A stretch of DNA of 64,000 nt from an uncultured Methanosarcinales archaeon (GTDB lineage Archaea > Nanobdellota > Nanobdellia > Woesearchaeales > DSVV01): the NCBI GenBank assembly GCA_964452935.1, contig CAYVNO010000001.1:25537-89536 (forward strand), in the 5' to 3' direction. The stretch's first letter is position 1. Each line of letters begins with the position of its first letter. This document shows, piece by piece, positions 767 to 52,852 of the stretch. The notes beneath the pieces are model-generated. The model was not told where the DNA came from, did no database searches, and was given only the letters and a program-made list of their open reading frames with translations. The translations under genes were made by a program, and so were the position numbers.

Positions 767-3748
767 ATGAAGAAATTATTAATCTTTGGAATTTTGTTTG
801 TTATAATGTTGATGGGAGTTAATGGGTTGGATTGTAGTCCTGGAGGTTATGATGAATCAAACCCACAACTTACAACTACTTGTTCACAAGCTGAGGAGTT
901 AGGGATATCTCATGTTCCAGGCGGTGTGATCATACAAGATGATGGTATGATATCTACAAATGGTGCAGATATTACTGATATGTTGGCTGAGTTAGATGGA
1001 CAGGCTCTTAATATTCAAGGTGACGCAGTTATCAGTGGACAAAAAGTTAAGATTGGTGGTACTGTGACAGTCGATGGTAGTGATATTGTAGTGGCTCAAG
1101 ATTCGTTTATGGAGCTCCCAGATGGTACAGAGATGCAGGGAGGAATTGTTGATCTTTCTGCTAAAACAGTTAGGTTAGAAGATTTTGGTACATATACAGA
1201 TGAAAGTACAGGATTAGTTGTTGCTGATAATGCTGTAATTAAATATGAGTCAGATGAGATCTCTGTTCTTGAAGGTGGAACTGCAAGTTATACTGATACA
1301 GGAGGAAGTGCTGTTGTTATTAATGGATATAGTGGGGGTGTTGGTGTGAGTTGTGCATCTGCAGGAAGTTGTACTGTTGAGACAGAGCACCAGGCTGTTG
1401 CACTTGCAGACTTTGGGCAGGATGTCGATGTATCATTTAATAATGCTGGTTTTATGGAAGTTAGTTTTAGTGCAGATGGAGGTAGGTTGACTTTACCTCC
1501 TGGAGGAGATGTTTATTTTAGTGATACTGATACTGGCAGTGCGGATTTTATGTATATTGGTGATGATGGACAGGTATTGAATTTTGATGTTGGTAAATCA
1601 TTTGATACTGTTGTGTATATACAAGGCAATCAGATTGCAATTAATGATATAAGGATTACAAATAATGAACATCATAGTGCAGATGGCGGAGTTAGTCGTA
1701 CTCTGGATTCTTCAAATACTTTGAGGGTTTACAGGGATAGTGGAGTAAATATTGAAGGGGAGTTTGATGGTGAGTTGGTAATTGATCATCCTGTTGAAGG
1801 AGGAGCTCAGGCAGTGTTGGCTAGTGGTGAGGATGTTTATTTCTCTATTGTTGATGATGAAATTTATTTAGGATTTGATTCTGTCGGCGAGGGTTCTAGG
1901 TTTGCAGATGCAACACTGAGTTATGCAGATTCATCTGGTTCAATTTCTGTTACTCCTGAAGGATCTATGTCTATGAATGGAAGGTTTAAGGTTGAGACAG
2001 ATGATGGTGTTGTTTTAGCTCTTGGTAATCCTGGTGCTGAGTCTAGTGTATATTCACATGGCGATATTCTTAGAGATGATGATGGATCTCTTGTACGTGT
2101 TGATGTAGATACAGGTTCTGCTGAATATGTTGGGAGAGTTATAGAAGGGAATGATGTTGCTTTAGAGTTTGGAGATGGAGACTTAAGGAGTGCGATTGTT
2201 TCTGACGGAATGTGTACTATTGATGATGAGAATGGTCTTGAGATGGTACATGCAGAATTTTCTGGTGATTTACAACAGATATACTTTGCAGGAAATCTTC
2301 CTTCTGAAGATGTTATGGAAAGTAGAGCTTCTGTTTATTTTGATGAACAAGGGAATTATATTGTTGGAGCAAATGCAGATAGAATGTCTATTGATAATGG
2401 TGGATCTATACAGATTGTTGAGTATGGAGATGTTAGAACAGGAAAAGGTAGTGGCTATACATCATTTTTTGTTCAACCAGAAGATGTAATGACTGTTTTT
2501 CTTCAAGATGATGATACTGCTTTGACAGCTTTTGTAGGTCAGTTAGAAGGGATGGATGATAATCAGAGAGCTGTTGCAGCAGAGTTTATGGGCGGATACC
2601 AAGATGCATTGTTGTCAGGAAGTGTTGACGATAGTGATGATGCTGTTTCGGGTACATACTCTGATGTGTTTGACATGGTAGATGATGAAGAGTTTATGGC
2701 AGCTTATATGGCTTTAGATCATAGTGGGAGGGATGAAGTTGTTAAACTTGCTGCGATGGAATATGGAGTATATGCTGAGGATGGTTATACGATGGCAGAT
2801 GCAATGGTTGGAGCTTTGGCTGATCATGAATTTTATTCTTCAGCAGATATTGATTCTGCTTGGGTTAGTAATAATCCTATTGAAGGAAGGTCTGTTGCTT
2901 ATGGTAGTAGAGATGCATTGTTACTTGGGGATGCTGTTGCTGCTTTAGATGCGGCAGGAAATATAAATGATGATGAACTTGCTGCATTGATGTTTCCTTC
3001 AGATTATCCAGAGGCAGAAGCTCAAAGGGTTGCACTAAAATATGATGGTGTTCCTTTTTCATCAGATACAGCTTTGGGATTAAGTGACCCTGTTCTTTCA
3101 GATGAGTTGGAAGATGCTGTTGCCGGTGTACAAAATATGGATAACTTTAGAGATACAATGGTTGAAATATTTGGTGACCCAGATCTGTTAAGTATGAGTA
3201 ATGATGATATTTATACAATGATTGCTGCAGATAATGGATGGGAAAATCTTCCAAGAGATCAGTTAGAAAAAAGAGTTGATAACGGGTTGGAAGGAAGAGG
3301 TTTATTTGCAAGACAGGTGCAGAGTTCAAGAGATGAGATTGTTCTTGCAGGCGGTTCATATGGTTTGCAGCAAGATTTAGATTATGCGTTGGAGCAAGCT
3401 GATGAAGTTCTTCCACCAGAGCCGTATGAATCTGGATTGAGAGCTCCTCCTGAACTTGAGTTAGGGACTATTAGTGATGTGCAAGGTATAATGAGTGCCG
3501 TAGATGGGTATGATACTGGTATAGTTGATACTAGGGTGCAAGAGAACGTACTTATACCTTATTTTGAGACTCAGGTAGAAAGAATTAATGGGCTTGTTGG
3601 TGATGGGGATATTGGTGATGCAGGAATGCAAGCAGATGCTTTAGATAGAATGCTTGAAATTTATGTATTTACTGGTGAAATCACCCAGGATGAAGCAGAT
3701 AGAATAATGGGAACGGTTCACGAGCAAGCAACCTCAGGTTTTAATTAA
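767..3748 (+). CDS. Large secreted acidic surface protein (993 aa), N-terminal signal peptide, rich in D/G/S/T/V
   Basis: The N-terminus MKKLLIFGILFVIMLMGVNG is a signal-peptide-like hydrophobic segment. The protein has very acidic, low-complexity composition. It is probably an S-layer or adhesin-like protein. Confidence 0.5.
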   Translation: MKKLLIFGILFVIMLMGVNGLDCSPGGYDESNPQLTTTCSQAEELGISHVPGGVIIQDDGMISTNGADITDMLAELDGQALNIQGDAVISGQKVKIGGTVTVDGSDIVVAQDSFMELPDGTEMQGGIVDLSAKTVRLEDFGTYTDESTGLVVADNAVIKYESDEISVLEGGTASYTDTGGSAVVINGYSGGVGVSCASAGSCTVETEHQAVALADFGQDVDVSFNNAGFMEVSFSADGGRLTLPPGGDVYFSDTDTGSADFMYIGDDGQVLNFDVGKSFDTVVYIQGNQIAINDIRITNNEHHSADGGVSRTLDSSNTLRVYRDSGVNIEGEFDGELVIDHPVEGGAQAVLASGEDVYFSIVDDEIYLGFDSVGEGSRFADATLSYADSSGSISVTPEGSMSMNGRFKVETDDGVVLALGNPGAESSVYSHGDILRDDDGSLVRVDVDTGSAEYVGRVIEGNDVALEFGDGDLRSAIVSDGMCTIDDENGLEMVHAEFSGDLQQIYFAGNLPSEDVMESRASVYFDEQGNYIVGANADRMSIDNGGSIQIVEYGDVRTGKGSGYTSFFVQPEDVMTVFLQDDDTALTAFVGQLEGMDDNQRAVAAEFMGGYQDALLSGSVDDSDDAVSGTYSDVFDMVDDEEFMAAYMALDHSGRDEVVKLAAMEYGVYAEDGYTMADAMVGALADHEFYSSADIDSAWVSNNPIEGRSVAYGSRDALLLGDAVAALDAAGNINDDELAALMFPSDYPEAEAQRVALKYDGVPFSSDTALGLSDPVLSDELEDAVAGVQNMDNFRDTMVEIFGDPDLLSMSNDDIYTMIAADNGWENLPRDQLEKRVDNGLEGRGLFARQVQSSRDEIVLAGGSYGLQQDLDYALEQADEVLPPEPYESGLRAPPELELGTISDVQGIMSAVDGYDTGIVDTRVQENVLIPYFETQVERINGLVGDGDIGDAGMQADALDRMLEIYVFTGEITQDEADRIMGTVHEQATSGFN

Positions 3749-20223: not shown

Positions 20224-21597
20224 TTATCCTTCTATTTTCTCTAATATTGCTTTTGTTTTATGTAAATCTTTTATGTTTTTTTCTGAATAGAATAATGCTA
20301 ACTCTTTTGCATATTCCTGTGTTATCTTATCTTTGTATCCAGCTCTTCTAGCTTTTGCAAGGATTTTATCTGAGATTGTTCTCTTTTCTTCAATTGTCTT
20401 TTTTATAGGTTCTAATAGTTTGTGATATTTCTTTGGAGTGTTACTTTTTATGAATTTATAGAATCTGTTTATGTATATAGTTAACTCTTTGTTCTTGAAT
20501 CCTTCATAGGCAGAGTGTTTCTGGAATTCATTTCTTACGATTGTGTGGGGAGGAATGAATATCATGTTATTTTCTATTTTAAATGCTTCTTTTACATCTA
20601 TATCCATTGGAACGACAAGCATAAAATCTTGATATATTTTTCTTAGAGAATATTTCATCATTGTTGAGACTCCAAATATTTGGGATAAGAAGTTCATGTC
20701 TCCTCCCCTGTATTCTATTGTCCCATGTTTGTTAATTTTGACTGGGTTCCATGCATAATCTAGAATATTTGAAGATTTTGCGAGTTCAGTTTTTCCATAA
20801 CCTGCTCTTTTTAGCAGGCTTATCCATTTTGCATGTTTTTTATTTAGTGTAGATAATAAGTCTCCGAGGGTTTGTTTGTATGGTGGGAGTCCTCCAAAAA
20901 GTTGTCTTGCCCCATACAATCCTTTCATATAATTTAGTTTTTTGCCCCCTCTGTATAAGACTGTTCTTGAGTCTTTAGCTAGATGTTTGCAGTTTACGAA
21001 TGGTGAGGCCTGTAATAATGTTGTTAAAATTGGATCCATAGCAATAATAAAATTATATCCGTCAAGCATTGTTTTCTTTACTTTTGAATTTAATTTATAG
21101 TGGAGCATTTTTGTTTTGTGGTCAAACATTCCTCTTGGTAGGGTGTAATGTTGATGGAATCCACAACATAGTCCTGCGTTGGTGAATCTCTCTTTTCCAA
21201 GAACCTTTTCTTTGACAGTATACCACCCACCTTGTCTGAATGAAGGCTTATTGATTCCAAAGTAGGTTGCAAAGGGGTAGATATGTTTGTTATTTTTTTC
21301 TGCTATTTCTGTTAATTTTATATGGCTGTTTACTATCTCTTTGCTTGTTGAGCTAAGCTTTCTGTAAGGAAAGCAGATTACCTCAATCATTGATTTTGCA
21401 CATTCTGCTTGAACATTTAATTTTTGTTTTTGTGCTTTTTTTAGTAATGGATCTGAGTGATCAATTGATCCATCATTATTTAGAATAAAATTCTCTGTTT
21501 CATATCCACTTAGAGAACGTTTTAATGGCTTATCATGGTCTTTTGTTGGGATAAATAGCCTAGTCAGTTTTTTAACATGTTCTTTTACCATTTTCAT
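20224..21597 (-). CDS. GCS2/YbdK-like carboxylate-amine ligase (glutamate-cysteine ligase family 2)
   Basis: N-terminal SGYETENFILNNDG is the E-x-E motif and CGFHQHYTLP is the GxHxH motif. The size of 457 aa is typical of COG2170 amidoligases. The gene directly abuts the FGase-like gene. Confidence 0.55.
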   Translation of the reverse strand: MKMVKEHVKKLTRLFIPTKDHDKPLKRSLSGYETENFILNNDGSIDHSDPLLKKAQKQKLNVQAECAKSMIEVICFPYRKLSSTSKEIVNSHIKLTEIAEKNNKHIYPFATYFGINKPSFRQGGWYTVKEKVLGKERFTNAGLCCGFHQHYTLPRGMFDHKTKMLHYKLNSKVKKTMLDGYNFIIAMDPILTTLLQASPFVNCKHLAKDSRTVLYRGGKKLNYMKGLYGARQLFGGLPPYKQTLGDLLSTLNKKHAKWISLLKRAGYGKTELAKSSNILDYAWNPVKINKHGTIEYRGGDMNFLSQIFGVSTMMKYSLRKIYQDFMLVVPMDIDVKEAFKIENNMIFIPPHTIVRNEFQKHSAYEGFKNKELTIYINRFYKFIKSNTPKKYHKLLEPIKKTIEEKRTISDKILAKARRAGYKDKITQEYAKELALFYSEKNIKDLHKTKAILEKIEG

Positions 21598-22241: not shown

Positions 22242-25200
22242 TTATTTCTTCTTTGGTTTAATTCCTAGTTTCTTCTCTGTTTTTGCGACCGTTAGTGTTG
22301 TTTTTACAACTGAGTCGGGGTTTAATGACATGGAATGGATGCCTGCTTCAACTAAGAATTCAGCAAATTCTGGGTAATCAGAAGGGGCTTGCCCACAGAT
22401 TCCAATGTACTTGTTCATTTTATTAGCAATATGTATTACTCTTCTAATTAATGTTTTTACGGCTTGGTTTCTTTCTTCATACACATGTGCTACTAATTCA
22501 GAGTCTCTGTCTACACCTAATGTTAGTTGAGTTAGGTCGTTACTTCCTATTGAAAATCCGTCAAAATGTTCTAAGAATTCTTCTGCAAGAATTACGTTAG
22601 ATGGTATTTCACACATTAGGATGATTTTTAAGTTATCTTTTCCTTTTTCTAGTCCATTTTTTTTCATTTCTTTTAGAACTAATAACCCTTCTTCTACTGT
22701 TCTACAGAACGGAATCATTAAGACAATGTTTTTTAGTCCAAACTCTTTCATTACTTTTCTCATTGCCATACATTCTAATGCAAATGCGTCTTTGTATGCA
22801 GGAGAGTAGTATCTTGAAGCACCTCTCCAGCCAATCATTGGGTTGTCTTCAGTTGGTTCGAAATATTTCCCACCAATTAAGTTTGCATATTCGTTTGATT
22901 TAAAGTCTGATAATCTTATAATAACTTTTTTTGGATAGAATGCTGCTGCTAATGTACCTACTCCTTGTGCAAGCTTATCGACAAAGAATTGTGCTTTGTT
23001 TTTGTAGCCTTCTGTTAGTTTGTTGATCTGATTTCTGATTTTATTGTCTGTTACTTTATTGAATTCTAGTAATGCTCTAGGATGTACTTTTATATATGAA
23101 TTTATTATGAATTCTTCTCTTGCAAGGCCAACTCCTGAATTTGGTAAGAAACTGAATTCAAATGCTTCTTCAGGATTACCAATGTTCATCATTATTTCTG
23201 TTCTTGTTTCTGGAATTGATTTAAGGTTTGTTTTATGTATTTTGAATTTGAGTAATTTATCATAGATATAACCAATTTCACCTGAAGAACAGTCTGTTGT
23301 TATCTTTTGTCCTTGTTTTATTAGTTGTGTTCCATTCTCTGTCCCGACAATACATGGTACTCCAAGTTCTCTAGAGATGATTGCTGCATGACAGTTATTT
23401 ACTAATACAGGGGTTAATTTTTCTGTGAATACTGCGTAATTGTGATTATCTGCTACAGTTATGTTGTATACATCACCAAAGCTTTCTTCTTTTAAGTCTA
23501 CCATTCTGTTCATACGTAAGTCACTTTCTAATAACTCTCTTATCTTTTGTGAATTTTCTTTTTTTAGATCTTCTTCTGAGATATACAAATTTTTATCATA
23601 TCTTAATTTAGTCTGACCTCTTACTTCGTCTTTATTGAATATCTGTCTTGTAGAAAAGAATCTGCTTTTTATCACTCTATTTCTTATAACTCCCTTTATT
23701 CTTTTTGTATACTTTAATATCTTATCTAATTTCTCGACAATTTGTACATTGTGGATGTTCCTATTTTTTGTGACTTGAGGTATAATTCCAATTCTAAGAC
23801 AAGCTAACATAGTTCCTTCTAGAAGATTTCGATTTGAGATATAAATATTAATTCTATTATTATAAAATGTTCCGTCCCCATCAATTACTCCTGCTAAAAA
23901 ATTATATGCTACTTCTTCATCGCTTTGAAGAAGGGTAGTTACGATTTGATTTTTTTGTTCATGCATATTGTATGCTATGTCTTTTGAGTATAATCTAAAT
24001 GCCGTTGCTTGCCCTCTGACCTCTTTTCCTCTGATCATTCCGGTAGATATCTTTTTCTCAAAAGGAACAAAACTTTTATTGTATACTGATGTCATACAGT
24101 CTTGCATATGGTTAATGAATCTTTCTTTTTCTGGGATTTGCTTTTGAATAAATTGGACTTCTCCATGAGTTCGTGATCTGTAAATATGTCCATCCGTCAT
24201 TATTCCTCCCAATAAGTATGCTAATCTCTTATCTTTTTCAGTGGTTTGATTAATCATGGGAATATGTTGGGCAATACACACCATTTCTTTGTCGAGAAGC
24301 ATTTGTTTTATTTCTGTATCAACTAATTGTCTGTTTTTAATGTTGATCATTTTGTGATCCGGGGTAATTGTTAATGTGTTGTCCCTTATCTTTCCCCTAA
24401 TAGAAACACTTATCTTTATTTTTTTGGATTTTTTCTTCATGGATGCAATAATTGGTTTCCATTCAATTCTCTTTGTTTGTCTATTCAATGAAGGGGTTAG
24501 TAATCCATTGTATCCTTCTTCATGAACTTGTTGCATTGTCATAAATCCTTTATTTGTTAAAATTTTGGTGTTACCATCAAAACAAGTTCTTCCTCCTCTG
24601 TTTGTAACTATTGCAGAGGCTATTTTCATAATTGGTTCCCAGTCTGGATCAGTCATATCTGTCACTAGGATTTGACCTTTTTTGAAATTATTAATGTCTT
24701 TTACGTCTTTGATTATATTTGCTGGACCTTGTCCTATTTTCATTCCTACAGCTTTTCCTTTTGCAACAATTTTTCCTTTTTGTTGTAATTTGTATTCTTC
24801 TAAAGTGTTTAAGTCTCTTTGACTCTGAACTGTTTCAGGTCTTGCTTGAACTATGAATAATTTTTTTGTTTTTCCATCTTTTGCCCATTCCATATCCATT
24901 GGTTTGAAATAGTTAGCTTTTTCTGAGTAATGGTCTTCTATAATGCATGCCCATTCTGCTAATTTTAGTACTTCTTTATCTTCTAGAACGAATTTCTTTC
25001 TATCTTCTTTGTTTACTGGAATATTTTTTACTGTTTTGTTACCTTCCGAGGCATAAATCATTTTTATTTTCTTTGGACCAACTTTTTTAGAGATTATTGG
25101 TTTGAACCCTTGTTTTAATGTTGGTTTGAAAACATAGTATTCGTCTGGGTTTACTGCTCCTTGTACAACATTTTCTCCTAGACCATATGCTCCTGTTATA

Positions 25201-25880
25201 AAAACAGCATCTTTAAATCCTGTTTCAGTATCAATGGAAAACATAACTCCTGAACATGAGAGGTCTGATCTAACCATCTTTTGAACTCCTATGCTTAGTC
25301 CTATGGAAAAATGGTCGAATTTTTTATCTACTCTGTATGAGATTGCTCTGTTAGTAAATAATGATGCAAAACATTTTTTACATGCGGCAATTAAATCGTG
25401 ATCTCCTTTTATATTTAGATATGTTTCTTGTTGACCTGCAAATGATGCATCTGGTAGGTCTTCAGCAGTGGCTGATGATCTTACAGCGACATCTGTTCTT
25501 TTTCCGTATTCTTTGCATAGCTTTTTGTATGCTTTGATTATTTCTTGTTTTAGATCTTCTGGAAATTCTGCGTTCTTTATTAGCTCTCTTACACGATGTC
25601 CTTTATCTGCTAAGTCTCTCATGTCTTTTGTGTTTAATCCTTTTAGAATATTTTTTACTTCATTCCTTATTCCTGCTTTTTCTAATAGGTGATGGTATGA
25701 ATGTGCTGTGATTGCGAAACCGTTCGGAATATTTACTCCTTTTTTTGTTAGATTTCTATACATCTCTCCTAATGAAGCATTTTTTCCACCAACATGAGGA
25801 ACATCTTCAATACCTAGTTCGTTAAACCATAGAATGAACTCTTTTTCTTTGTTTTTTGGTTTTTTCTTGAATAATGCCAT
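22242..25880 (-). CDS. ppsA: Phosphoenolpyruvate synthase (pyruvate, water dikinase) interrupted by an intein
   Basis: N-terminal GGKNASLGEM...VPNGFAI is the PPDK_N ATP-grasp region. The catalytic motif TNRGGRT|CHAAIISRELGVPCIVGT is split by a 397-aa insert. The C-terminal PEP-utilizing TIM-barrel region is present. Confidence 0.9.
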   Translation of the reverse strand: MALFKKKPKNKEKEFILWFNELGIEDVPHVGGKNASLGEMYRNLTKKGVNIPNGFAITAHSYHHLLEKAGIRNEVKNILKGLNTKDMRDLADKGHRVRELIKNAEFPEDLKQEIIKAYKKLCKEYGKRTDVAVRSSATAEDLPDASFAGQQETYLNIKGDHDLIAACKKCFASLFTNRAISYRVDKKFDHFSIGLSIGVQKMVRSDLSCSGVMFSIDTETGFKDAVFITGAYGLGENVVQGAVNPDEYYVFKPTLKQGFKPIISKKVGPKKIKMIYASEGNKTVKNIPVNKEDRKKFVLEDKEVLKLAEWACIIEDHYSEKANYFKPMDMEWAKDGKTKKLFIVQARPETVQSQRDLNTLEEYKLQQKGKIVAKGKAVGMKIGQGPANIIKDVKDINNFKKGQILVTDMTDPDWEPIMKIASAIVTNRGGRTCFDGNTKILTNKGFMTMQQVHEEGYNGLLTPSLNRQTKRIEWKPIIASMKKKSKKIKISVSIRGKIRDNTLTITPDHKMINIKNRQLVDTEIKQMLLDKEMVCIAQHIPMINQTTEKDKRLAYLLGGIMTDGHIYRSRTHGEVQFIQKQIPEKERFINHMQDCMTSVYNKSFVPFEKKISTGMIRGKEVRGQATAFRLYSKDIAYNMHEQKNQIVTTLLQSDEEVAYNFLAGVIDGDGTFYNNRINIYISNRNLLEGTMLACLRIGIIPQVTKNRNIHNVQIVEKLDKILKYTKRIKGVIRNRVIKSRFFSTRQIFNKDEVRGQTKLRYDKNLYISEEDLKKENSQKIRELLESDLRMNRMVDLKEESFGDVYNITVADNHNYAVFTEKLTPVLVNNCHAAIISRELGVPCIVGTENGTQLIKQGQKITTDCSSGEIGYIYDKLLKFKIHKTNLKSIPETRTEIMMNIGNPEEAFEFSFLPNSGVGLAREEFIINSYIKVHPRALLEFNKVTDNKIRNQINKLTEGYKNKAQFFVDKLAQGVGTLAAAFYPKKVIIRLSDFKSNEYANLIGGKYFEPTEDNPMIGWRGASRYYSPAYKDAFALECMAMRKVMKEFGLKNIVLMIPFCRTVEEGLLVLKEMKKNGLEKGKDNLKIILMCEIPSNVILAEEFLEHFDGFSIGSNDLTQLTLGVDRDSELVAHVYEERNQAVKTLIRRVIHIANKMNKYIGICGQAPSDYPEFAEFLVEAGIHSMSLNPDSVVKTTLTVAKTEKKLGIKPKKK
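23394..24584 (-). mobile_element. Intein (397 aa) with a LAGLIDADG homing-endonuclease domain, inserted at the GGRT/CHAAI catalytic-His motif of PpsA
   Basis: It begins with CFDGNTKILT (Cys1, block A). LAGLIDADG-like YLLGGIMTDGHI and FLAGVIDGDGTF blocks are present. It ends ...VLVNN, followed by the extein Cys (CHAAI). Its in-frame excision restores the canonical PpsA motif. Confidence 0.85.
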
Positions 25881-25930
25881 GTGTTGGTTTATATGTTGGG
25901 GAGTATATAAAGATTTGTTATTATTGTAGA

Positions 25931-26911
25931 ATGGGTATGCAAAGGATTATATATCATTTATGGGTGTTTTGTTGTATGGTGTTTATATTAGAACTTTCAA
26001 AAGAAGATTTAGAATTATCTGTTTATGAGGCGAGGAGATTATTGGGTGTTAAGGGGAAGTTAGTTGAGAATTTATTATTAGTTGAAGATGTTGATGTTGA
26101 TTTGGTTAAAAGGTTGGCGTATGTAAATAATTTATATGAACTTGTTGTTCAATGTGATATGAAGGATTTTGAGAAGAGTTTGAAAGGTTTAGGAAAGTTT
26201 TATGAGAAAAGTTATTGTGTTAGGAAGATTGGTGATGGGTTAAGCGAGAAAGAGATTGGGTCTTTGTTCTGGGATAGGTTAGTTGAGGTCGGTTTGAAAC
26301 CTAAAGTTGACTTGTTTAAACCAAAGACGTTATTTGTTTGCATTTTTTTTAAGAATAATGTTATTGTTGGTAAATTAATATGGGGTAATGAGAAAGAATT
26401 CTTGAATAGGAAAGCTCATAAAAGGCCTGCTTTACATCCGAGTTCGTTAAATCCTAGGTTAGCTAAAGCAATGGTTAATATTTCTGCGAAGAATAACATC
26501 TGTGATCCTTTTTGTGGTTCAGGAGGAATTTTAATAGAGGCAGGGTTAATGGGGTTAAAGGTTGAGGGTTGCGATATCAATAGATTTATGATTAATGCTT
26601 GTGAAAAGAATTTGAAACATTTTGGTGTTAAATGTAAGTTAATGAGAAAGGATGCCCTGAAATTAATTGGTAAATTCGGAGCAATTGTTACTGATTTACC
26701 TTATGCAAAGAATACAAAGAATGTTGATTTGGATAAGTTGTATAAAGAGTTTTTTAAGAATGTTTATAGTTTAACTGATGTTATTGTTGTAGGTTTGCCT
26801 GATTTTGTTTCTTTGAAAGGTTTATTATATAGGTGGAAAGTTAAGAAGAAGTTTGTTTATTATTTGCATAAGAGTTTGAGTAAGGTTATTCTTGTTTTAG
26901 AGAAGAGTTAG
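25931..26911 (+). CDS. THUMP-domain tRNA (guanine-N2)-methyltransferase, Trm11/Trm14-like
   Basis: RPALHPSSLNPRLAKAMVNIS...DPFCGSGGILIEAGLMG is the SAM-binding motif of Trm11-type MTases. The ORF-track start at 25874 would overlap ppsA, so a later start near 25931-25976 is more likely. Confidence 0.6.
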   Translation: MGMQRIIYHLWVFCCMVFILELSKEDLELSVYEARRLLGVKGKLVENLLLVEDVDVDLVKRLAYVNNLYELVVQCDMKDFEKSLKGLGKFYEKSYCVRKIGDGLSEKEIGSLFWDRLVEVGLKPKVDLFKPKTLFVCIFFKNNVIVGKLIWGNEKEFLNRKAHKRPALHPSSLNPRLAKAMVNISAKNNICDPFCGSGGILIEAGLMGLKVEGCDINRFMINACEKNLKHFGVKCKLMRKDALKLIGKFGAIVTDLPYAKNTKNVDLDKLYKEFFKNVYSLTDVIVVGLPDFVSLKGLLYRWKVKKKFVYYLHKSLSKVILVLEKS

Positions 26912-28105: not shown

Positions 28106-29161
28106 ATGCCAAGAAGATATGGAACAGGAGACGGAATAAGAGGAAGAGGAGGAAGATTTAGTGGAGATTTTTCTAGTAGAGGCGGTACTCAAGCAAGATT
28201 AGAAGAGCTTGCAGATAGGACTACGGCTGCACATAATCCTAGAAATAAGTCTAGACAGGTTCCTGAACCAATCACTGTTCATGAGTATGGTGGAATTGGA
28301 GAGCTTAGGGAATTAACTAAGAATGATTGTTATCCTGTTTATAATCATGTAGTTAAACAAGGTCTTCAACCTAGTAATGCTCTTGGAAGGGCTGTTACAT
28401 GTTTTATGGTTAATATGTTTTTGAATTTGCCAGGAGATGATTATTCTAGAAGAAGATATTCAAATAATGATAGAAGGGCTATGAGAGAACAGTTTGATAT
28501 TTTCCGTGAGGGTTTAATGGGGTTAGAGATTCTTTTTGGAGAAAGAAGTAATCTAGGTATTGGCGGATTTAAGAAAATTACTAATTGGTATGAACATGTT
28601 GATTATTTGGTTGAGAATGTAGATCTTTATTCAGTGTCTAGATCTGATATTGTTTATGTTAATGTTCCTCCTCAGGGACGTTTTTCAAATAGAGAGGAGA
28701 AAGCGCTTGAGGCAGTGTTTACAGGGTATAGAGATGAACAAGAACCTCATTTAAGAGTTCTCAAAGAAAATGCTAGTGAGGCGTTACTTCAACTTATGTT
28801 GAATCCAGAATTAAATGATCTTGAATCATATATTGATTCTATTGGTGAATATGATTTTAGTAATGAAAATGGAGGAGTAGAGGAAGCTGTTGATGCGATT
28901 ACCCCTCTTTTGAGATTATTTGATCAAATGGAGAAAGGGCAAGAACTTACAGCTGTTGAAGATTTCAAGGAGAGATATGGGGCAATGTTGCAAAAATATC
29001 CTGATCAACAAGGTTTAATATCATTGATGTCACAGGCGGTTGCTGAGGACGGTGTGTTAATAACTGAAGGAGCAGATGTAACAGAGATTCCTAACTTTAG
29101 GTTAGTTATGAGTTACAGAGATTGCTGTATGTATCAAAGAGTTAATCCAACTTCTCAATAA
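28106..29161 (+). CDS. Hypothetical protein with an N-terminal RGG/Gly-Arg-rich box
   Basis: The N-terminus MPRRYGTGDGIRGRGGRFSGDFSSRGGTQ is an RGG-type low-complexity region. The rest of the protein has no recognised motif, and the gene is higher in GC. Confidence 0.4.
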   Translation: MPRRYGTGDGIRGRGGRFSGDFSSRGGTQARLEELADRTTAAHNPRNKSRQVPEPITVHEYGGIGELRELTKNDCYPVYNHVVKQGLQPSNALGRAVTCFMVNMFLNLPGDDYSRRRYSNNDRRAMREQFDIFREGLMGLEILFGERSNLGIGGFKKITNWYEHVDYLVENVDLYSVSRSDIVYVNVPPQGRFSNREEKALEAVFTGYRDEQEPHLRVLKENASEALLQLMLNPELNDLESYIDSIGEYDFSNENGGVEEAVDAITPLLRLFDQMEKGQELTAVEDFKERYGAMLQKYPDQQGLISLMSQAVAEDGVLITEGADVTEIPNFRLVMSYRDCCMYQRVNPTSQ

Positions 29162-30878
29162 ATTTCTTAGTTGTTTCTAAAGCCATGTCAACTTCTTCTC
29201 GAGTTGGTTTGTGGAATGCTCTTAAGAATTTGTTTCTCATTGTGTGTATTTTCCTGATTTCTTCGTCATGCGGAAGATCTTTTTCTTGGCCTAGTATATT
29301 TGCTAGTCTATTGAAGTCAAGGTTTTTATCTTCTTCTCCAAATCTCTTTTTGTATTGTTCTTTTAGAGCGTAGTAGATAGCTAGATCGCAGTTAACTAGA
29401 ACGCTGCCTGAGTTTAACAATCCTTTTGCGTCCTCTTCTGTCTGTCCTGTTTTCTGACTTAGGATTGCAGCAGTTAATGCTGTTGGGTTTAGTTCAGTTG
29501 TTTCTTCTTCTGTATCCTCTTCTTCTGAAGTGTCTTGGTTGAATAATGATAGTAATTCGTTTGTGTTTTCTGGAAGGTTTACTTTTATCTCTTGTTTTGG
29601 TTCAGTTACTGGTGCTTCTTCAGCTGTAACTGGTTCTTGTGTTTGTTCTAGTTGTTCTGTTGTTTCTTCTTCTGCTTCTATTGGTTGTACTTCTTGTGTT
29701 TCTTCAGCTTGAATTGATTCTTGTTCTTTTGTTTCTATTATTGGTTGTTCTGTAGATTCTTCTGCTGTTAATGGTTGTTCTTCTTTTACTTCCAACTCTT
29801 CTTTTTCATCCCAATAATCAATTATTGGTGTTTCTTCGGTTGTTGATTCTTGTTTTTCTTCAACAGCTGTTTCCTCTTTGACTTCTTCTTCAACTTGTTC
29901 AACCTTTTCTTCATCCATGCCTAGAATATCTTGTGATTGTAGAACATAATATTGGTCATTTGATATTGCGAACTCTATAAATTGAGGTCTTCCGAATAAT
30001 CTCTCTATTCTTTTGCAATGTAATGCAATATCCATTATCTGTCTTTCATTTAATTTTTGTTCTGCAGCTTTTTTTGGCGGAATAATTGATTTTTTTGTTT
30101 TGAATTTATATTTATCTAATTCAAAAAGGAAATCTTGTTTTTTTATGTCTGTATCATCTATGGCTAGTGTATCTTTGTTTAGTGTGTATCTGTCAGGCAT
30201 TATGTTCCCGCTTGTTATTGCACATCCTAATCCTTTGCATGCAACAATTAGTATTTGTTCATGATTTGTTGGGTTTGTAGAATATGCTGCTCCAGATAGG
30301 TGAGAGTTGACCATGTTTTGGACTATTACAGCCATTGATGAATCTTGAATATTATTTTTCATTCTGTGTTCAATAGCTTTTGCTGTATAGAATGATGCCC
30401 AACATGCTTGTAGTGCATTTAATAATCTTTTATTTCCTTCAATGTTTAGGAAGTTTAGGTGCATCTTTGAGTAATCTTCATACCCACATGTGCTAGCTCT
30501 AACTGCTACTAATGGTCCTTTCTTTGAGTTAAGCATCTGGTTTAATTTAGTTGTATCTTCAATTAGACAGTTATAGTTTTCTAGAATTTCTTCTTGTATT
30601 GGATCTGGAAGTATTCCATTTACAATTAATTTTTGGATACCATTAGCAACATTTTGTAGGTTTTCTTTGTCTTCAAGTTTTATAGAAGATAATAAATTTC
30701 TTATTCTTATGTCTATTCCAGTATGTTTTAAGAATTTATCAAATGATTGTTTTTTAATAACAAATCCAATAGGTACTGAGAATCTATTGCATAAGGCTGC
30801 TAACCTTACTGACTTTTCCCCGACTTCGTGTATGTCATCCTTTGTTATATTTTTGAGCATTAATAAACTACTTTGCAT
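29142..30878 (-). CDS. Stand-alone PEP-synthase/PPDK N-terminal (ATP-grasp nucleotide-binding) domain protein with a long acidic E/T/Q-rich linker and a small C-terminal helical domain
   Basis: N-terminal VGEKSVRLAALCN...VPIGFVI...VAVRASTCGYEDYS parallels PpsA GGKNASLGEM...VPNGFAI...VAVRSSATAEDLP. The swivel-His and PEP-binding domains are absent. There is a ~170-aa acidic low-complexity middle and a C-terminal ...EEIRKIHTMRNKFLRAFH segment. Confidence 0.5.
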   Translation of the reverse strand: MQSSLLMLKNITKDDIHEVGEKSVRLAALCNRFSVPIGFVIKKQSFDKFLKHTGIDIRIRNLLSSIKLEDKENLQNVANGIQKLIVNGILPDPIQEEILENYNCLIEDTTKLNQMLNSKKGPLVAVRASTCGYEDYSKMHLNFLNIEGNKRLLNALQACWASFYTAKAIEHRMKNNIQDSSMAVIVQNMVNSHLSGAAYSTNPTNHEQILIVACKGLGCAITSGNIMPDRYTLNKDTLAIDDTDIKKQDFLFELDKYKFKTKKSIIPPKKAAEQKLNERQIMDIALHCKRIERLFGRPQFIEFAISNDQYYVLQSQDILGMDEEKVEQVEEEVKEETAVEEKQESTTEETPIIDYWDEKEELEVKEEQPLTAEESTEQPIIETKEQESIQAEETQEVQPIEAEEETTEQLEQTQEPVTAEEAPVTEPKQEIKVNLPENTNELLSLFNQDTSEEEDTEEETTELNPTALTAAILSQKTGQTEEDAKGLLNSGSVLVNCDLAIYYALKEQYKKRFGEEDKNLDFNRLANILGQEKDLPHDEEIRKIHTMRNKFLRAFHKPTREEVDMALETTKKFIEKLD

Positions 30879-45521: not shown

Positions 45522-45575
45522 ATTTTGAATATTGTTCTAGTAATATTTATAAAGATGCCTGTTTTTATGCTGGTT

Positions 45576-46676
45576 ATGGCAGTTACTAGTGCTCAGAAAT
45601 TTAAGATGAAGAAGTTTATCAAAGAGTTGTCTAAACATAGGGGTAGACATACTGAGTTAGTTAGTGTTTATGTTCCTGCAGGGTACGAGATTACTAAGAT
45701 TATTAATCATTTATCTCAGGAGCAAGGGACAGCAACTAATATTAAATCTACTGCTACTAGGAAAAATGTTATTGATGCTCTTGAAAGAATGATACAACAT
45801 TTGAGGTTGTATAAGAAAACGCCTGAGAACGGACTTGTTGCTTTTTCAGGAAATGTGGCTGAGAGAGAGGGACAGAGTGATGTTCAAGTTTGGAGTCTAG
45901 AACCTCCTGTACCAATGAATCAGAGATTATATAGGTGTGATAAACAGTTTATTTTAGATCCTTTAATTGATATTTGTGAGACAAAAGAAGCTTATGGTTT
46001 GATTGTTATGGATAGAAGGGATGCAAATATTGCTTTACTTCGTGGAAAGGCAATTATTCCTTTAGTTAAAACACACTCAGAAGTTCCTGGAAAGTTCCGA
46101 GCTGGAGGTCAGAGTGCTCAACGTTTTGCACGATTAAGAGAAGGTGCTGCAAAAGATCATTATAAAAAGGTTGCAGAGTATGTTAAAGAACAGTTTTTGC
46201 ATATGAAAGATTTGAAAGGTATTCTAGTTGGTGGTCCTGGTCCGACAAAGTATGATTTTGTTGAAGGGAATTATATTACAGATCAGTTAAAGCAGAAAAT
46301 AATTGCAATAAAAGATTTATCATATACAGAAGAGTTTGGTTTGCAGGAATTGTTAGATAAATCTCAGGATGTTTTGGCAGATGAAGAGGTTGCCGATGAG
46401 AAGAAGTTAATGCAAAAGTTTTTTCAGTTTTTATCAACAAAGCCGGGAATGGTTTCTTATGGTGAGAAAGAGGTCAAACATTTTTTAGAGACAGGAACTG
46501 TTGATACTCTTTTGTTATCTGAAGCTTTGGAAGATGAAGAGATTGAAGAGTTTGAAGAAAAGGCAAAAGAGATGGGTAGTGAGGTTAAAATTATTTCTGT
46601 AGAAACAAGAGAAGGTGTTCAGTTAAGAGATATGGGAAAAATAGCAGCAATTCTTAGGTATGATACTAGTCATTAG
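45576..46676 (+). CDS. prf1: Peptide chain release factor aRF1
   Basis: The NIKS motif (TATNIKS) and the GGQ motif (FRAGGQSAQRFARLRE) are present. The start is taken at MAVTSAQ, and the ORF-track N-terminus is probably an over-extension. Confidence 0.85.
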   Translation: MAVTSAQKFKMKKFIKELSKHRGRHTELVSVYVPAGYEITKIINHLSQEQGTATNIKSTATRKNVIDALERMIQHLRLYKKTPENGLVAFSGNVAEREGQSDVQVWSLEPPVPMNQRLYRCDKQFILDPLIDICETKEAYGLIVMDRRDANIALLRGKAIIPLVKTHSEVPGKFRAGGQSAQRFARLREGAAKDHYKKVAEYVKEQFLHMKDLKGILVGGPGPTKYDFVEGNYITDQLKQKIIAIKDLSYTEEFGLQELLDKSQDVLADEEVADEKKLMQKFFQFLSTKPGMVSYGEKEVKHFLETGTVDTLLLSEALEDEEIEEFEEKAKEMGSEVKIISVETREGVQLRDMGKIAAILRYDTSH

Positions 46677-49771: not shown

Positions 49772-50686
49772 ATGAAACGGAAACTAATCAAACAGGGTGG
49801 TGGTGGGGTCACATTCTATGTGCCAAAGAAATGGGTTGATAAACAAGGCTTGAAACCTGGTGATGAGATTGATGTAATTGAGGAAGATGATAAATTAATT
49901 GTTCTAAATGAAGCGATGACTCAGAATAAGACTGTTGAGATTGATATTAAGGGTATGGATCATACAGCTCTTTTGAAAACAGTTATCTCTTATTATGAGA
50001 TGGGTTATTCTGAGATTACTATTATTTCAGATAATGGAATGGTTTATATTCCAACTTTATTAAAAGAAAAGAAGATAACAGTAAAAGAAGAGGTTGAAAG
50101 ATTAGTAAATAGGCTTATTGGTTTTGAGTTGATTAGTTTTGAGTCAAATAAATATGTTTTGAAAGATATTGCTATGACTTCTCCTACTGAGTTTGATAAT
50201 GTTCTAAGGAGAATCTTTTATTTATTATTAGAATTTCAAAATTATGTAAAAGAGACAGTTGATAATAAGAATAAAGTCAAAGATTATAATGAACATCATG
50301 ATAGTATTGCTAAGTTTATTAGTTTTTGTATTAGGTTATTGAATTTAAGTATGGATAAAACTAATGTTGAGAAGAATAATTTACATACAATACTAACATT
50401 GTTGGATAAGTATACTGATGCGTTAAGATGGCTATTATACGATTACACTGCTAGTGGAATAAAAGATAAAAAATCAATCTTTGCTATAATGGATCATTTT
50501 AGAATGTATTATAATTTATTTTATAATTATGATATAAAATTAATAAATGAGTTAGATAGAGAAAGAATTAAGTTAAGAAAAACATTGAAATCAGATGAAG
50601 CAGTTATTCACTTTTCTTCTGTTTTAGAATATATCATGGCAATGATTAGACCAACTATTTGTTTAGTTGAGAGTTCCAAGTCTTAA
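49772..50686 (+). CDS. Transcriptional regulator with an N-terminal AbrB/SpoVT swapped-hairpin domain and a PhoU-like helical C-domain
   Basis: MKRKLIKQGGGGVTFYVPKKWVDKQGLKPGDEIDVIEEDDKLIVL is a typical AbrB/MazE-type domain. The C-terminal ~220 aa are helical and PhoU-like. Confidence 0.5.
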   Translation: MKRKLIKQGGGGVTFYVPKKWVDKQGLKPGDEIDVIEEDDKLIVLNEAMTQNKTVEIDIKGMDHTALLKTVISYYEMGYSEITIISDNGMVYIPTLLKEKKITVKEEVERLVNRLIGFELISFESNKYVLKDIAMTSPTEFDNVLRRIFYLLLEFQNYVKETVDNKNKVKDYNEHHDSIAKFISFCIRLLNLSMDKTNVEKNNLHTILTLLDKYTDALRWLLYDYTASGIKDKKSIFAIMDHFRMYYNLFYNYDIKLINELDRERIKLRKTLKSDEAVIHFSSVLEYIMAMIRPTICLVESSKS

Positions 50687-52852
50687 TCCTCTGTCAACTC
50701 TATGTTTTAGTGTATATATTTGTTGTAACATTCTATCCATTTGTGTTGGGTTTTCTAGATTTCTTCTGTGCATAACTGAAACGTATTTTGTTGATGCATT
50801 AACCATTCCTGAATCTGCCCATTGAAACATTTCTCTGTGTTTTTCTCTGTCTGTTCTGAAATTGTTATCATGTTCTGATCTCATTGAAACATATACATCG
50901 ACATATTTTCTAACTTGGTCTTTTGTTAGGTTGAAATCTGATTCAGATAGGAACCATGTTACTTCTTCTATCTCTTTCCCCCATGAAATTAATCCATAAT
51001 CAACAATATTTCCTTTAACAATATTTCCTTTTTCTCCTGTTCTTATTGATCCTGGTTTCCAATCTCCGTGTATAATACTTAATCTTCCTTCGATTGCATA
51101 TTGTTGGAATGTTTCATTTGCTCTTTCTATATCTCCGACAAGATATGAACCGATTTCTGATTTAATTACACTATGCACTTTACTTGATGAACTTGTTGGT
51201 ATAACAACTGCTTCATAATGTGGTGTGTCTCCTCTGAGATGTCTAGATGTTCCTAAAACTGTTTCTTTATCTTTTAGTGCTGCTTTTGTTGCGTTTTTAT
51301 GGAATAAGCCCATTAAAAATAGGTTGTGTTTTATGTACCTGTCAATATTAAATGTTCCGTTGGGATTGAATGGGATATAACCTGTTTTTGCATATCCTGA
51401 TGTTTGGTTTGCTACATTGCTAAGTACAAGTAATGAGCTGTTATTTAGTTCTATTAATTCTTTTAATGATGGCATAAACTCTTCAAATTCTCCAAGATCC
51501 CATTTGTAGGCTGTTTGTGCTTCTAGTTTGTTTAATTCAATTGCTGCTTGTTTTGCGACGAGTTCCGGAGATGATAAAACAAGTCCTGAGTTGTTTCCTG
51601 TTGCTATTGGGAAATATGTATCCATCTCAACAATTGCGTCAATGTGTCCTTCTTCTGTTTCTGGGAATATTTCACTTATTCTTCTACGAGCAGATTCTAG
51701 TATTGCTGTTTTGTTTGCTCTTCTAACAACAGGTTCCATATTGCTTAAGATTGGTTTGTAATTGAACTCTTCTCTTTTCATCATTTCAAATTCAGAGTTC
51801 ATTAACTGGTCTATGAACCAGCCATAATATACTAATCTCATAAACTCTTTATTTGATTCATCTGTTCTTCTTGATTCTTCTCCAACATCTTCATCTCCCT
51901 CTTTTATTGCTGCAAATATGTCTTTTCCTAATTCAATTAGTTCATAGTCAGTTAGATCATGTTCTTTTAATAGTCTTAGGATTAATGGAGAATTTTCAGT
52001 TGCGTTTTGAACATCTTCTATTTCAAAAGGTAGGTCTCTTGGCATGTCTTCTGGCTCAATGTATGCTTCTCCATATCCTCTGTCGAAGTCAAATTGGTTT
52101 AGGTGGTCTGCTGTTAATTTTTCTTTAATTTCTTTAGCAATTCTTTCATATGCACCTTGGAATAATGTATCGTGAAGTCTCAATAATCTTGCTGGCATTC
52201 CTTGGTATGCTTCTCCATATACTTTGTGATCTTCTTTTCCTGTTTCTAGATAGTCAACAACTCTATTTACTAGTTTTACTCTGTCATTATTTCTTTCTAT
52301 TGTTCCTCCTTCTATACCTTGTTCTACTGCATTTCTTATTTCAGATAATTCTCTTTCCATAATTATGTCAAAACATTTTCTTCCTATGCTGTCAGATTTA
52401 TTACAGTCTTTATGTCTTGGGTCGTTGCTTAATAAAGGGTATGTCCATATACTTTCAGTACAGAAGGGATCTATTCTCATGCTTATTGCATCAATTGTTC
52501 TTATTAGTCTTCCACAGATGGTTTCTAGATCTTTTTCTGTTTCTCCTGTTAGTTGTTCAGCTAAAGGAGTACATCCACAATCTGTTGAATCATATTCGGA
52601 ATAATTTCTTGGGTGGTTGTGGTAATCTGCTCCTCCTTTATTTTTAATTCCAAATAATTCTAATCCATATAACTCACATATTTTATCATATTCAAATGCT
52701 ATTCTGTCGGCTATCTGAGTTTGTTGGTTTGCATCAGGTTCTGAGAAGATTCCGTGTCTATGTAAATGATCCTGTCTAAAATAATTAGTAATTCTATCTC
52801 CTAAGTCATCCATTAAATCTACTAATTCTTCTGCGCTTGGTTGATTACTCAT
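50663..52852 (-). CDS. Large (729 aa) protein with a C-terminal aminoglycoside-phosphotransferase/protein-kinase-like (APH) domain
   Basis: LSIIHGDWKPGSI is the Brenner-type HGDxxxxN catalytic loop, and IVDYG is a DFG-equivalent. The N-terminal ~450 aa are unassigned, acidic and Cys-containing. Confidence 0.5.
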   Translation of the reverse strand: MSNQPSAEELVDLMDDLGDRITNYFRQDHLHRHGIFSEPDANQQTQIADRIAFEYDKICELYGLELFGIKNKGGADYHNHPRNYSEYDSTDCGCTPLAEQLTGETEKDLETICGRLIRTIDAISMRIDPFCTESIWTYPLLSNDPRHKDCNKSDSIGRKCFDIIMERELSEIRNAVEQGIEGGTIERNNDRVKLVNRVVDYLETGKEDHKVYGEAYQGMPARLLRLHDTLFQGAYERIAKEIKEKLTADHLNQFDFDRGYGEAYIEPEDMPRDLPFEIEDVQNATENSPLILRLLKEHDLTDYELIELGKDIFAAIKEGDEDVGEESRRTDESNKEFMRLVYYGWFIDQLMNSEFEMMKREEFNYKPILSNMEPVVRRANKTAILESARRRISEIFPETEEGHIDAIVEMDTYFPIATGNNSGLVLSSPELVAKQAAIELNKLEAQTAYKWDLGEFEEFMPSLKELIELNNSSLLVLSNVANQTSGYAKTGYIPFNPNGTFNIDRYIKHNLFLMGLFHKNATKAALKDKETVLGTSRHLRGDTPHYEAVVIPTSSSSKVHSVIKSEIGSYLVGDIERANETFQQYAIEGRLSIIHGDWKPGSIRTGEKGNIVKGNIVDYGLISWGKEIEEVTWFLSESDFNLTKDQVRKYVDVYVSMRSEHDNNFRTDREKHREMFQWADSGMVNASTKYVSVMHRRNLENPTQMDRMLQQIYTLKHRVDRGLRLGTLN

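Follow-up and report, generated by a model that had tools for sequence, protein, structure and literature searches.

The intein of Methanocaldococcus jannaschii phosphoenolpyruvate (PEP) synthase, which we take to be the Mja PEP entry of InBase, has Phe as its penultimate residue and was reportedly shown to splice by Chen, Benner and Perler in 2000. A literature search for Mja PEP or a PEP synthase intein by name gave no match, and a 1188-aa match (P0120) considered as the M. jannaschii enzyme (MJ0542, presumably 1188 aa long) was rejected because it is an MCM protein whose intein is unrelated; in the Methanocaldococcaceae comparison below, Methanotorris formicicus (P0045, P0124) stands in for M. 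jannaschii. Class 1 inteins commonly, though not by definition, carry a penultimate His (G:6), and position F:4 is commonly Asp (or Cys or Trp); in several inteins, mutation of F:4 alters how the splicing steps are coordinated. The N-terminal nucleophile is absent (Ala1 or Pro1 instead) from inteins of class 2 (KlbA-type) and class 3 (WCT-triplet), class 3 having in addition Cys at F:4 and Thr at G:5. About 5% of functional inteins are without the G:6 His (PMC4031507), a role that a block F His is able to assume (PMC5050341), and PEP synthase (PEPS) inteins inserted at GG[TRM]T/CHAA (slashes mark insertion points throughout) have already been noted (PMC10710043). The intein analysed here lies in a stretch of 64,000 nucleotides (the window); it had been identified correctly in the original prediction but is ordinary, its family being already known and widespread.

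The ppsA locus and its insert

The ppsA precursor ORF (PEP synthase/pyruvate, water dikinase; 22242..25880, minus strand) encodes 1212 aa with the intein included, as established from the ORF list, NCBIfam and Pfam: PRK06464 (1209 bits) and TIGR01418 (1176 bits) of NCBIfam each match in two stretches, and Pfam finds PPDK_N, PEP-utilizers (split) and PEP-utilizers_C. All features of the gene given below are on the minus strand. The N-extein coding part (24585..25880; PpsA residues 1–432) ends in ...AIVTNRGGRT, and the C-extein coding part (22242..23393; 383 aa plus stop) starts with CHAAIISRELG. Between them lies a class 1-type intein with a nested LAGLIDADG endonuclease (23394..24584; Cys1 to Asn397), in the junction context ...AIVTNRGGRT/CFDGN...VLVNN/CHAAIISRELG. 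The interval 23394-24584, whose coordinates had been predicted exactly, is stop-free and translates to 397 aa (CFDGNTKILT...TPVLVNN); a plus-strand reading was ruled out by stops throughout.

The insert separates Thr from Cys-His in the PpsA phospho-histidine motif (GGRT/CHAAI). The Cys+1 codon occupies 23391-23393 and the next codon, 23388-23390, encodes the His aligned with that of the PpsA TCHAA motif, which, as established knowledge, we take to be the phospho-histidine. Removal of the insert in silico yielded an 815-aa PpsA with GGRTCHAAI rebuilt in frame, which aligned with Neisseria meningitidis PpsA (2OLS; 964.6 bits, E 3.4e-289) gap-free across the junction (SAIVTNRGGRTCHAAII), in agreement with the claim that the insertion interrupts this motif and that the motif can be restored. 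The predicted junction peptide of spliced PpsA is GGRTCHAAIISR, and the rebuilt intein-less ppsA site reads ...GGAAGAACT/TGTCATGCAGCA..., also written ...GCAATAGTTACAAACAGAGGAGGAAGAACT/TGTCATGCAGCAATCATCTCTAGAGAACTT....

Intein anatomy and splicing residues

Residue conservation was counted over 90 distinct members of the intein family. Splicing block A (CFDGNTKILTNKG; 24546..24584) provides the nucleophile Cys1, present in 90/90 members, and block B (DNTLTITPDHKMIN; 24342..24383) contains TPDH, with Thr74 at B:7 (Thr in 89/90) and His77 at B:10 (His in 90/90). Block F (DVYNITVADNHNYAV; 23430..23474; numbering per PMC2807308) has Asn374 at F:4, His381 at F:13 and Tyr383 at F:15, and block G (TPVLVNN/C; 23391..23414) consists of the penultimate Asn396, the predicted cyclizing Asn397 and the extein Cys+1. 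LAGLIDADG motif 1 (LAYLLGGIMTDG, with LLGGIMTDG; residues 121–132; 24189..24224) includes the putative catalytic Asp131 (Asp in 87/90), and motif 2 (FLAGVIDGDG; residues 229–238; 23871..23900) the putative catalytic Asp237 (90/90); each motif ends in an acidic residue and then Gly, as in monomeric two-motif LAGLIDADG endonucleases. The endonuclease and DNA-recognition region spans residues ~110–352 (23529..24257), with boundaries estimated from the secondary structure of the model described below; this part matches I-DmoI (TM ~0.68 of target). All of the residues and motifs quoted in the original prediction (Cys1, LLGGIMTDG, LAGVIDGDG, terminal Asn, Cys+1 and penultimate Asn) were present; where missing splicing blocks or a broken frame had been named as contradicting it, we found blocks A, B, F and G and an intact frame.

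Profile and structure comparisons likewise identified an intein with a LAGLIDADG endonuclease, as predicted. The insert scored above the NCBIfam cut-offs for intein_Nterm (28.7 bits; cut-off 24.5) and intein_Cterm (18.5 bits; cut-off 15.6), and Pfam LAGLIDADG_3 matched residues 227–284 (E 3.4e-10); Pfam Intein_splicing reached 27.8–30.8 bits, below its gathering threshold of 35.8. In the AlphaFold model (pLDDT 90.6, pTM 0.90), the endonuclease region is nested between the two halves of a HINT splicing domain. The best PDB matches (Foldseek) are the intein-endonucleases TliVMA (7qss), PI-PfuI (1dq3), PI-PkoII (2cw7; TM 0.70) and PI-SceI (1vde), at E 2.9e-18 (TliVMA) to 8e-12, and the middle part of the model resembles I-DmoI structures (TM ~0.62–0.70 of target, E ~1e-8), consistent with a predicted pseudo-dimeric alpha-beta-beta-alpha-beta-beta-alpha LAGLIDADG fold. 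The four solved inteins share the two-domain HINT plus LAGLIDADG architecture but reside in other host proteins and sites and are only 11–16% identical to the window intein; PI-PkoII, which is also similar in sequence (E 3.2e-8), has Asp where the window intein has Asn374.

By anatomy, frame, family membership and fold, the insert is a class 1 intein: it is removable in frame and combines Cys1, B:7 Thr and B:10 His, Asn397 followed by Cys+1, F:13 His with an F:15 aromatic residue, and a HINT fold. Class 2 and class 3 assignments were rejected given the presence of Cys1, Asn at F:4, Val at G:5 and the absence of a WCT triplet. Two features common in class 1 are absent, namely the penultimate His (Asn396 instead) and Asp at F:4 (Asn374 instead). 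The original prediction had singled out block G as atypical. The penultimate Asn is real but not special to this copy: none of the 90 family members has a penultimate His (N 44, C 26, S 7, K 4, others 9), and position F:4 is Asn in 88/90 and Asp in 1/90. Because none of the 90 has this His and inteins lacking it are known to splice (PMC4031507, PMC5050341), a non-His penultimate residue is not a peculiarity of the window copy; across the sequences surveyed it is the rule of the whole family. Conserved alongside are F:13 His (86/90), an aromatic residue at F:15 (90/90) and the terminal Asn (90/90), and the sequences point to the block F His381 as the most likely helper of Asn cyclization.

Family, host and mobility

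The comparison within the Methanocaldococcaceae is with M. formicicus WP_007044344.1 ('intein-containing phosphoenolpyruvate synthase'), whose intein occupies the same site and is 30% identical over residues 1–397 (E 2e-43). Both inteins have the arrangement GG.T/C...N/CHAAI, starting with Cys1 and ending with Asn before Cys+1. Each encloses a nested two-motif LAGLIDADG endonuclease and carries Asn at F:4 and His at F:13, and in neither is the penultimate residue His; it is Phe in Methanotorris and Asn here. They also differ in the block F loop, which is four residues longer in Methanotorris (KAEDDFNHNY versus ADNHNY). The Methanotorris host PpsA belongs to another subfamily, whereas the window extein is close to bacterial-type PpsA. 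The expected allelic homology to the Methanocaldococcus PEP intein is thus borne out through a relative from the same family rather than M. jannaschii itself. The accompanying picture of one allelic homologue in a distant archaeon was right about allelism but far too narrow: relatives at the same PpsA site occur in 172 species genomes of DPANN archaea, methanogens, cyanobacteria, proteobacteria and Patescibacteria. In addition, 37 database proteins match the intein with E < 1e-30, and in a genome scan for relatives seeded with a five-sequence intein alignment, 68/68 parsed loci lay at GG.T/C...N/CHA[AS] in ppsA.

The PpsA inteins of DPANN archaea (Nanoarchaeota MAG177 L003, Pacearchaeota L049) and cyanobacteria (Nostoc, Scytonema, Synechocystis salina) share the site, the motif set and a length of 391–420 aa with the window intein, at 54–68% identity. 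The cyanobacterial inteins have a penultimate Cys (VCN/C), unlike the window intein, and the nearest DPANN copies read DNHTY in block F where the window intein reads DNHNY. With 68% as the maximum identity to any copy, the window intein is, judged from sequence, a new and divergent member of the known allelic PEP synthase intein family of the Methanocaldococcaceae PEP type. A natural mini-intein without endonuclease (P0057) occupies the same site. PPDK and RtcB also harbour relatives, as does a second PpsA site (REMGIP/C...KN/CVV; P0044, P0058), which has no His at +2. The RtcB inteins (Anaeramoeba, PMC10710043; archaeal P0005, P0025, P0035, P0054) belong to the same sequence family (38–41% full-length identity), and their site, FGST/CHGAG, resembles that of the window intein, with Thr preceding the intein at -1 and Cys+1 followed by a catalytic His at +2; they differ in being non-allelic, in a non-homologous RNA ligase as host and in a penultimate Lys.

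The host is an AT-rich, DPANN-like archaeon, as the prediction of an AT-rich archaeal source had anticipated: GC content is 0.33, genes for aRF1, an aCPSF1-like nuclease and Elp3 lie in the window, and its nearest relatives were found among DPANN MAGs. Comparison of GC among intein (0.308), extein (0.333) and window (0.328) revealed no compositional sign of recent intein arrival. Within the window, tblastn found no further intein copies, and no tRNA or Rfam features were found. Intein and extein similarities are discordant among relatives. At three loci (L008, L012, L013) the inteins are 58–62% identical to the window intein and the flanking exteins only 38–42%, whereas at two others (L054, L065) extein similarity exceeds intein similarity. 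This discordance indicates, at the level of sequence comparison, horizontal spread of the intein family, which makes the intein a poor lineage marker and weakens the use originally proposed for it.

Proposed mechanism, competing explanations and implications

We favour, with a probability of roughly 0.88, a class 1 intein with a nested two-motif LAGLIDADG endonuclease in the ppsA phospho-His loop of a DPANN-like archaeon, self-excising and, if the endonuclease is active, homing; splicing, the role of His381 and endonuclease activity are what we infer. The gene would be translated as a 1212-aa precursor in which the split of the swivelling phospho-His domain rules out PpsA activity. Cys1, aided by Thr74 and His77, would form a thioester at the N-terminal junction, and the N-extein would be transferred to Cys+1. 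Cyclization of Asn397 would then cut the C-terminal junction without the usual penultimate His, with His381 as the likeliest helper, and an S-to-N shift would restore the peptide bond, yielding an 815-aa PpsA with GGRTCHAAI intact and a free 397-aa intein. The free intein, if still active as an endonuclease, would cut intein-less ppsA alleles at the rebuilt site, and repair of the cut allele would copy the intein in.

It is quite possible, if on balance doubtful, that the intein still splices but is a fixed resident that has reached a late stage of the homing cycle and ceased to home, its endonuclease being inactive or kept for another reason. The composition of the intein is fully host-adapted, as would be expected of an old resident whose endonuclease may have lost its use or its activity, and the mini-intein at the same site indicates that endonuclease loss does occur in the family. 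However, the window intein and 87–90 of the 90 relatives retain both LAGLIDADG motifs with their catalytic Asp residues, suggesting continued selection on the endonuclease, and the discordance between inteins and exteins argues for continuing horizontal spread. Failure to splice at all, in which case the insert would be a dead intein or a domain inserted for good and ppsA would be non-functional or altered in function, is highly improbable. The missing penultimate His and F:4 Asp, both commonly important, and the sub-threshold Intein_splicing score would fit such a state, but the ORF is uninterrupted, none of the nucleophiles (Cys1, Asn397, Cys+1) is missing, nor is either the Thr or the His of block B, the extein remains strongly conserved (965 bits against a solved PpsA), and inteins without the G:6 His do splice (PMC4031507). 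Moreover, 90 members spread over at least eight phyla, cultured strains of Nostoc, Scytonema and Synechocystis among them, conserve the same non-canonical residues, which is not expected of dead copies. That an assembly chimera or sequencing artefact joined the intein to ppsA is scarcely credible: the source is a metagenome assembly, but both junctions are precise and keep the frame, the same architecture recurs in 68 other genomes, and the identical 1212-aa protein is present on 3 contigs of public metagenome assemblies, with the sequence held by NCBI, JGI/IMG and ENA, which argues against an artefact of this window.

A further alternative concerns how Asn cyclization is assisted. Except for the minor second-site branch, the family is found only directly before an extein Cys-His, and His stands at +2 in every host of the main site type (site a; PpsA CHAA, PPDK [CS]HAAV, RtcB CHGAG). 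In each host enzyme this His is the covalent-catalysis residue, phosphorylated in PpsA and PPDK and linked to GMP in RtcB. Together with the 0/90 count for G:6 His, the pattern would fit host-assisted splicing, in which the extein phospho-His replaces the penultimate His in Asn cyclization and ties the family to T/C-H sites. We regard this as unlikely: the relatives at the second PpsA site lack a His at +2, the conserved block F His offers an alternative that is known and sufficient (PMC5050341), and the correlation could merely mirror the target preference of the endonuclease. It is a decidedly long shot that these inteins borrow the catalytic His of the host to drive Asn cyclization and that this dependence, not endonuclease specificity alone, confines non-allelic jumps to T/C-H. 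Class 1 splicing with His381 as the likely helper remains our preferred account.

For annotation, the gene is an intein-containing ppsA, neither a fusion nor a novel 1212-aa enzyme; its predicted mature product is the spliced PpsA of 815 aa. The endonuclease may prove usable as a rare-cutter directed at the codon region of the ppsA phospho-His. The window copy adds one divergent DPANN intein to a family already present in the literature and in so many genomes. The family survey (0/90 G:6 His, 88/90 F:4 Asn) provides a natural test set for Asn cyclization without the G:6 His, and the T/C-H sites in PpsA, PPDK and RtcB provide another for non-allelic homing. If borrowing of the +2 His were true, it would define an extein-assisted mechanistic subgroup of inteins.

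An intein at the phospho-histidine motif of PEP synthase

We located an open reading of 397 aa (CFDGNTKILT...LTPVLVNN) on the minus strand at 23394–24584, enclosed by a single ORF of 1,212 aa (22242–25880, minus strand) with the junction context ...AIVTNRGGRT/CFDGN...VLVNN/CHAAIISRELG.... The plus-strand reading of the same interval was ruled out, as it contains stops throughout. Profile matches identify the ORF as phosphoenolpyruvate synthase (PpsA): NCBIfam PRK06464 (1,209 bits) and TIGR01418 (1,176 bits) each matched in two stretches, and Pfam returned PPDK_N, a split PEP-utilizers mobile domain and PEP-utilizers_C. Without the 397 intein residues, an 815-aa PpsA aligned end to end with Neisseria meningitidis PpsA (2OLS; 964.6 bits, E = 3.4e-289). 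The splice junction in this alignment is gap-free (SAIVTNRGGRTCHAAII(S/A)RELG), so the motif is reconstituted in frame and the original prediction of an intein here, exact in its coordinates, stands. The identical 1,212-aa protein was found on three contigs of public metagenome assemblies (the longest of 109,728 bp), with the sequence present in NCBI, JGI/IMG and ENA; the intein-bearing ppsA is no artefact of the window sequence.

In PpsA and pyruvate phosphate dikinase (PPDK), the phospho-histidine is the His of TCHAA, and the Thr just before it is where regulatory phosphorylation takes place in bacteria and plants. The intein separates this Thr from the His within the swivelling domain, so a precursor that has not spliced should lack activity. 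Elsewhere in the window, a 578-aa ORF (29142–30878, minus strand) matches the PpsA nucleotide-binding domain over its N-terminal 337 residues (PRK06464, 189 bits) and contains no phospho-His domain, PEP-binding domain or intein; it may be a partial paralog.

The insert matched NCBIfam intein_Nterm (residues 1–79; 28.7 bits, cut-off 24.5), intein_Cterm (residues 371–385; 18.5 bits, cut-off 15.6) and Pfam LAGLIDADG_3 (E = 3.4e-10), with Pfam Intein_splicing at 30.8 bits, under its 35.8 threshold. The closest solved relative by sequence was the intein endonuclease PI-PkoII (E = 3.2e-8). The motifs on the minus strand are block A (CFDGNTKILTNKG; Cys1), block B (DNTLTITPDHKMIN; Thr74 and His77), the first (LAYLLGGIMTDG; Asp131) and second (FLAGVIDGDG; Asp237) LAGLIDADG blocks, block F (DVYNITVADNHNYAV; Asn374, His381 and Tyr383 at F:4, F:13 and F:15, numbered after PMC2807308) and block G (TPVLVNN/C; Asn396, Asn397 and Cys+1). 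An AlphaFold model computed from an alignment with 14 homologs was confident (mean pLDDT 90.6, pTM 0.90), and its best PDB matches were intein-endonucleases throughout, led by the TliVMA intein (7qss; E = 2.9e-18) and including PI-PfuI (1dq3), PI-PkoII (2cw7; TM 0.70) and PI-SceI; the monomeric two-motif enzyme I-DmoI matched the central part alone. These profile, motif and structure matches identify the insert, at the level of sequence and model, as a class 1 type intein that carries a LAGLIDADG homing endonuclease nested within it, in agreement with the elements originally reported. Membership of class 2 or class 3 was excluded, given the presence of Cys1, a residue other than Cys at F:4 and Val at G:5.

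Distribution, mobility and host

A word-indexed search returned 15 homologs, of which 14 were PEP-utilizing enzymes with the intein at the same site wherever the junction was visible, and one was an RtcB RNA ligase (P0005). Exhaustive phmmer against 1.84 billion cluster representatives gave 107 matches at E < 1e-3 (37 at E < 1e-30; top match, 58% identity). Scanning one genome per species, we found relatives in 172 genomes; the 80 listed include DPANN archaea (up to 68% identity, locus L003), Thermoplasmatota, Methanosarcinales, cyanobacteria (54–61%; many cultured, such as Nostoc, Scytonema hofmanni UTEX 2349, Synechocystis salina, Crocosphaera and Aphanothece), Betaproteobacteria (including the complete genome GR16-43), Methylobacter, Usitatibacter, Patescibacteria and Rokuibacteriota. 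The ppsA site was GG.T/C...N/CHA[AS] in all 68 loci with parsable junctions; the InBase 'Mja PEP' intein of M. jannaschii occupies this site too. The proposed allelic relationship to the Methanocaldococcaceae PEP intein is real, given a full-length alignment at the same site (30% identity, E = 2e-43) with Methanotorris formicicus WP_007044344.1, which belongs to the 90%-identity cluster of P0045 and is annotated 'intein-containing phosphoenolpyruvate synthase'. Prokaryotic PEPS inteins at GG[TRM]T/CHAA are already on record (PMC10710043). One PpsA homolog (P0057; 942 aa, on a 1.17-Mb contig) carries at this site a natural mini-intein (GGRT/C...VNN/CHAAI; ~140 aa, roughly estimated from protein length) without an endonuclease domain, which would fit the stage of the homing cycle at which the endonuclease is lost.

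Related inteins also occupy other sites. Four PPDK homologs (P0034, P0053, P0059 and P0066) carry one at the homologous phospho-His site (GGLT/C...SN/[CS]HAAVVAR). In two PpsA homologs (P0044, residues 440–838, and P0058), a relative lies at a second site 14 residues downstream (REMGIP/CFSGD...VKN/CVV); their first site reads GGATAHAAI, with Ala for Cys, and the P0044 intein has no block F His (DNNNY). Archaeal RtcB, a non-homologous RNA ligase, contains members of the intein family at 38–41% full-length identity (P0005, P0025, P0035 and P0054; P0005 spans 17–1423 of contig L001, where Archease adjoins it), directly ahead of the catalytic His (T/C...KN/CHGAGR). These are non-allelic to the PpsA intein, yet share its T/C-H microcontext. 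A PEPS–RtcB intein link by 'microhomology-mediated nonallelic homing' was proposed for a eukaryotic RtcB intein (PMC10710043), and the archaeal RtcB sequences fit this idea. Separately, four PpsA homologs (P0018, P0023, P0031 and P0058) are interrupted in the ATP-grasp domain by a second intein that is unrelated (AEDLP/S...HN/SASFAGQQ), at a point where the window PpsA is uninterrupted (AEDLPDASFAGQQ).

Catalytic Asp residues of the endonuclease were retained in 87/90 and 90/90 family members, which suggests selection for cleavage activity. Relative to loci L008, L012 and L013, the intein is 58–62% identical and the flanking 250 extein residues just 38–42%, whereas relative to L054 and L065 the exteins are 65–76% identical and the intein just 47–52%. 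These comparisons fit horizontal movement of the intein among divergent ppsA genes and, at sequence level, indicate transfer between two PpsA subfamilies; the discordance undermines the suggestion that the intein could mark lineages. It looks like an old resident of this genome, given its GC content (0.308, versus 0.333 in the extein and 0.328 in the window); no second copy was found within the 64-kb window.

An AT-rich archaeal host, as first proposed, is supported by an archaeal/eukaryotic-type release factor (eRF1 domains 1–3; 45525–46676), Elp3, an aCPSF1-like beta-CASP nuclease, a GC content of 0.33 and the closest intein relatives, which among the 80 listed genomes are MAGs of Nanoarchaeota, Pacearchaeota, Woesearchaeota and Iainarchaeota; the host is probably a DPANN archaeon. 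Bacterial-looking MetK, ArgG and PGK adjoin archaeal-type genes. Strand asymmetry is strong across 1–64000 (G 19.3% versus C 13.5%; T 38.5% versus A 28.8%), peaking at a GC skew of +0.82 in 300-base windows of a methyltransferase-like ORF (25874–26911, plus strand; C just 6.2%, skew +0.60), and the opposite skew is nearly absent from minus-strand genes. Four large ORFs of 993, 729, 457 and 351 aa (767–3748, plus; 50663–52852, minus; 20224–21597, minus; 28106–29161, plus) had no Pfam match at E ≤ 1e-5, and the two largest had none in NCBIfam.

An atypical block G and the probable splicing route

Across an alignment of 90 distinct family members, Cys1, B:10 His, F:15 Tyr/Phe and the terminal Asn were invariant, and B:7 Thr (89/90) and F:13 His (86/90) nearly so. 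The penultimate position G:6 was Asn in 44, Cys in 26, Ser in 7, Lys in 4, Glu, Ala and Phe in 2 each, and Arg, Gly and Tyr in 1 each; His occurred in none. The atypical block G noted originally is thus present (Asn396), and the survey marks it as a family trait, not a defect or peculiarity of the window copy. F:4 was Asn in 88, Asp in 1 and Thr in 1; among all members seen, Asp occurred there only in the dikinase copies P0053 and P0059.

About 5% of functional inteins splice with another residue at G:6 (PMC4031507), and the role of a missing penultimate His can pass to the upstream block F His (PMC5050341). Splicing of the window intein most likely takes the usual four steps of class 1, and the residue that assists Asn397 cyclization is most likely His381 in place of a G:6 His. 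The M. formicicus intein ends in VVFN/C. Chen, Benner and Perler (2000) reportedly showed that the M. jannaschii PEP intein, whose penultimate residue is Phe, splices.

The original observation is confirmed and its interpretation supported: the element is a new, divergent member of an allelic intein family that is known and widespread (no species-representative copy exceeds 68% identity), with predicted splicing and endonuclease activity. To a specialist, the window intein itself holds no surprise. Of modest interest are the family-wide loss of the G:6 His and F:4 Asp and the restriction to T/C-His sites, which leave room for a low-probability reading in which the host catalytic His assists splicing.
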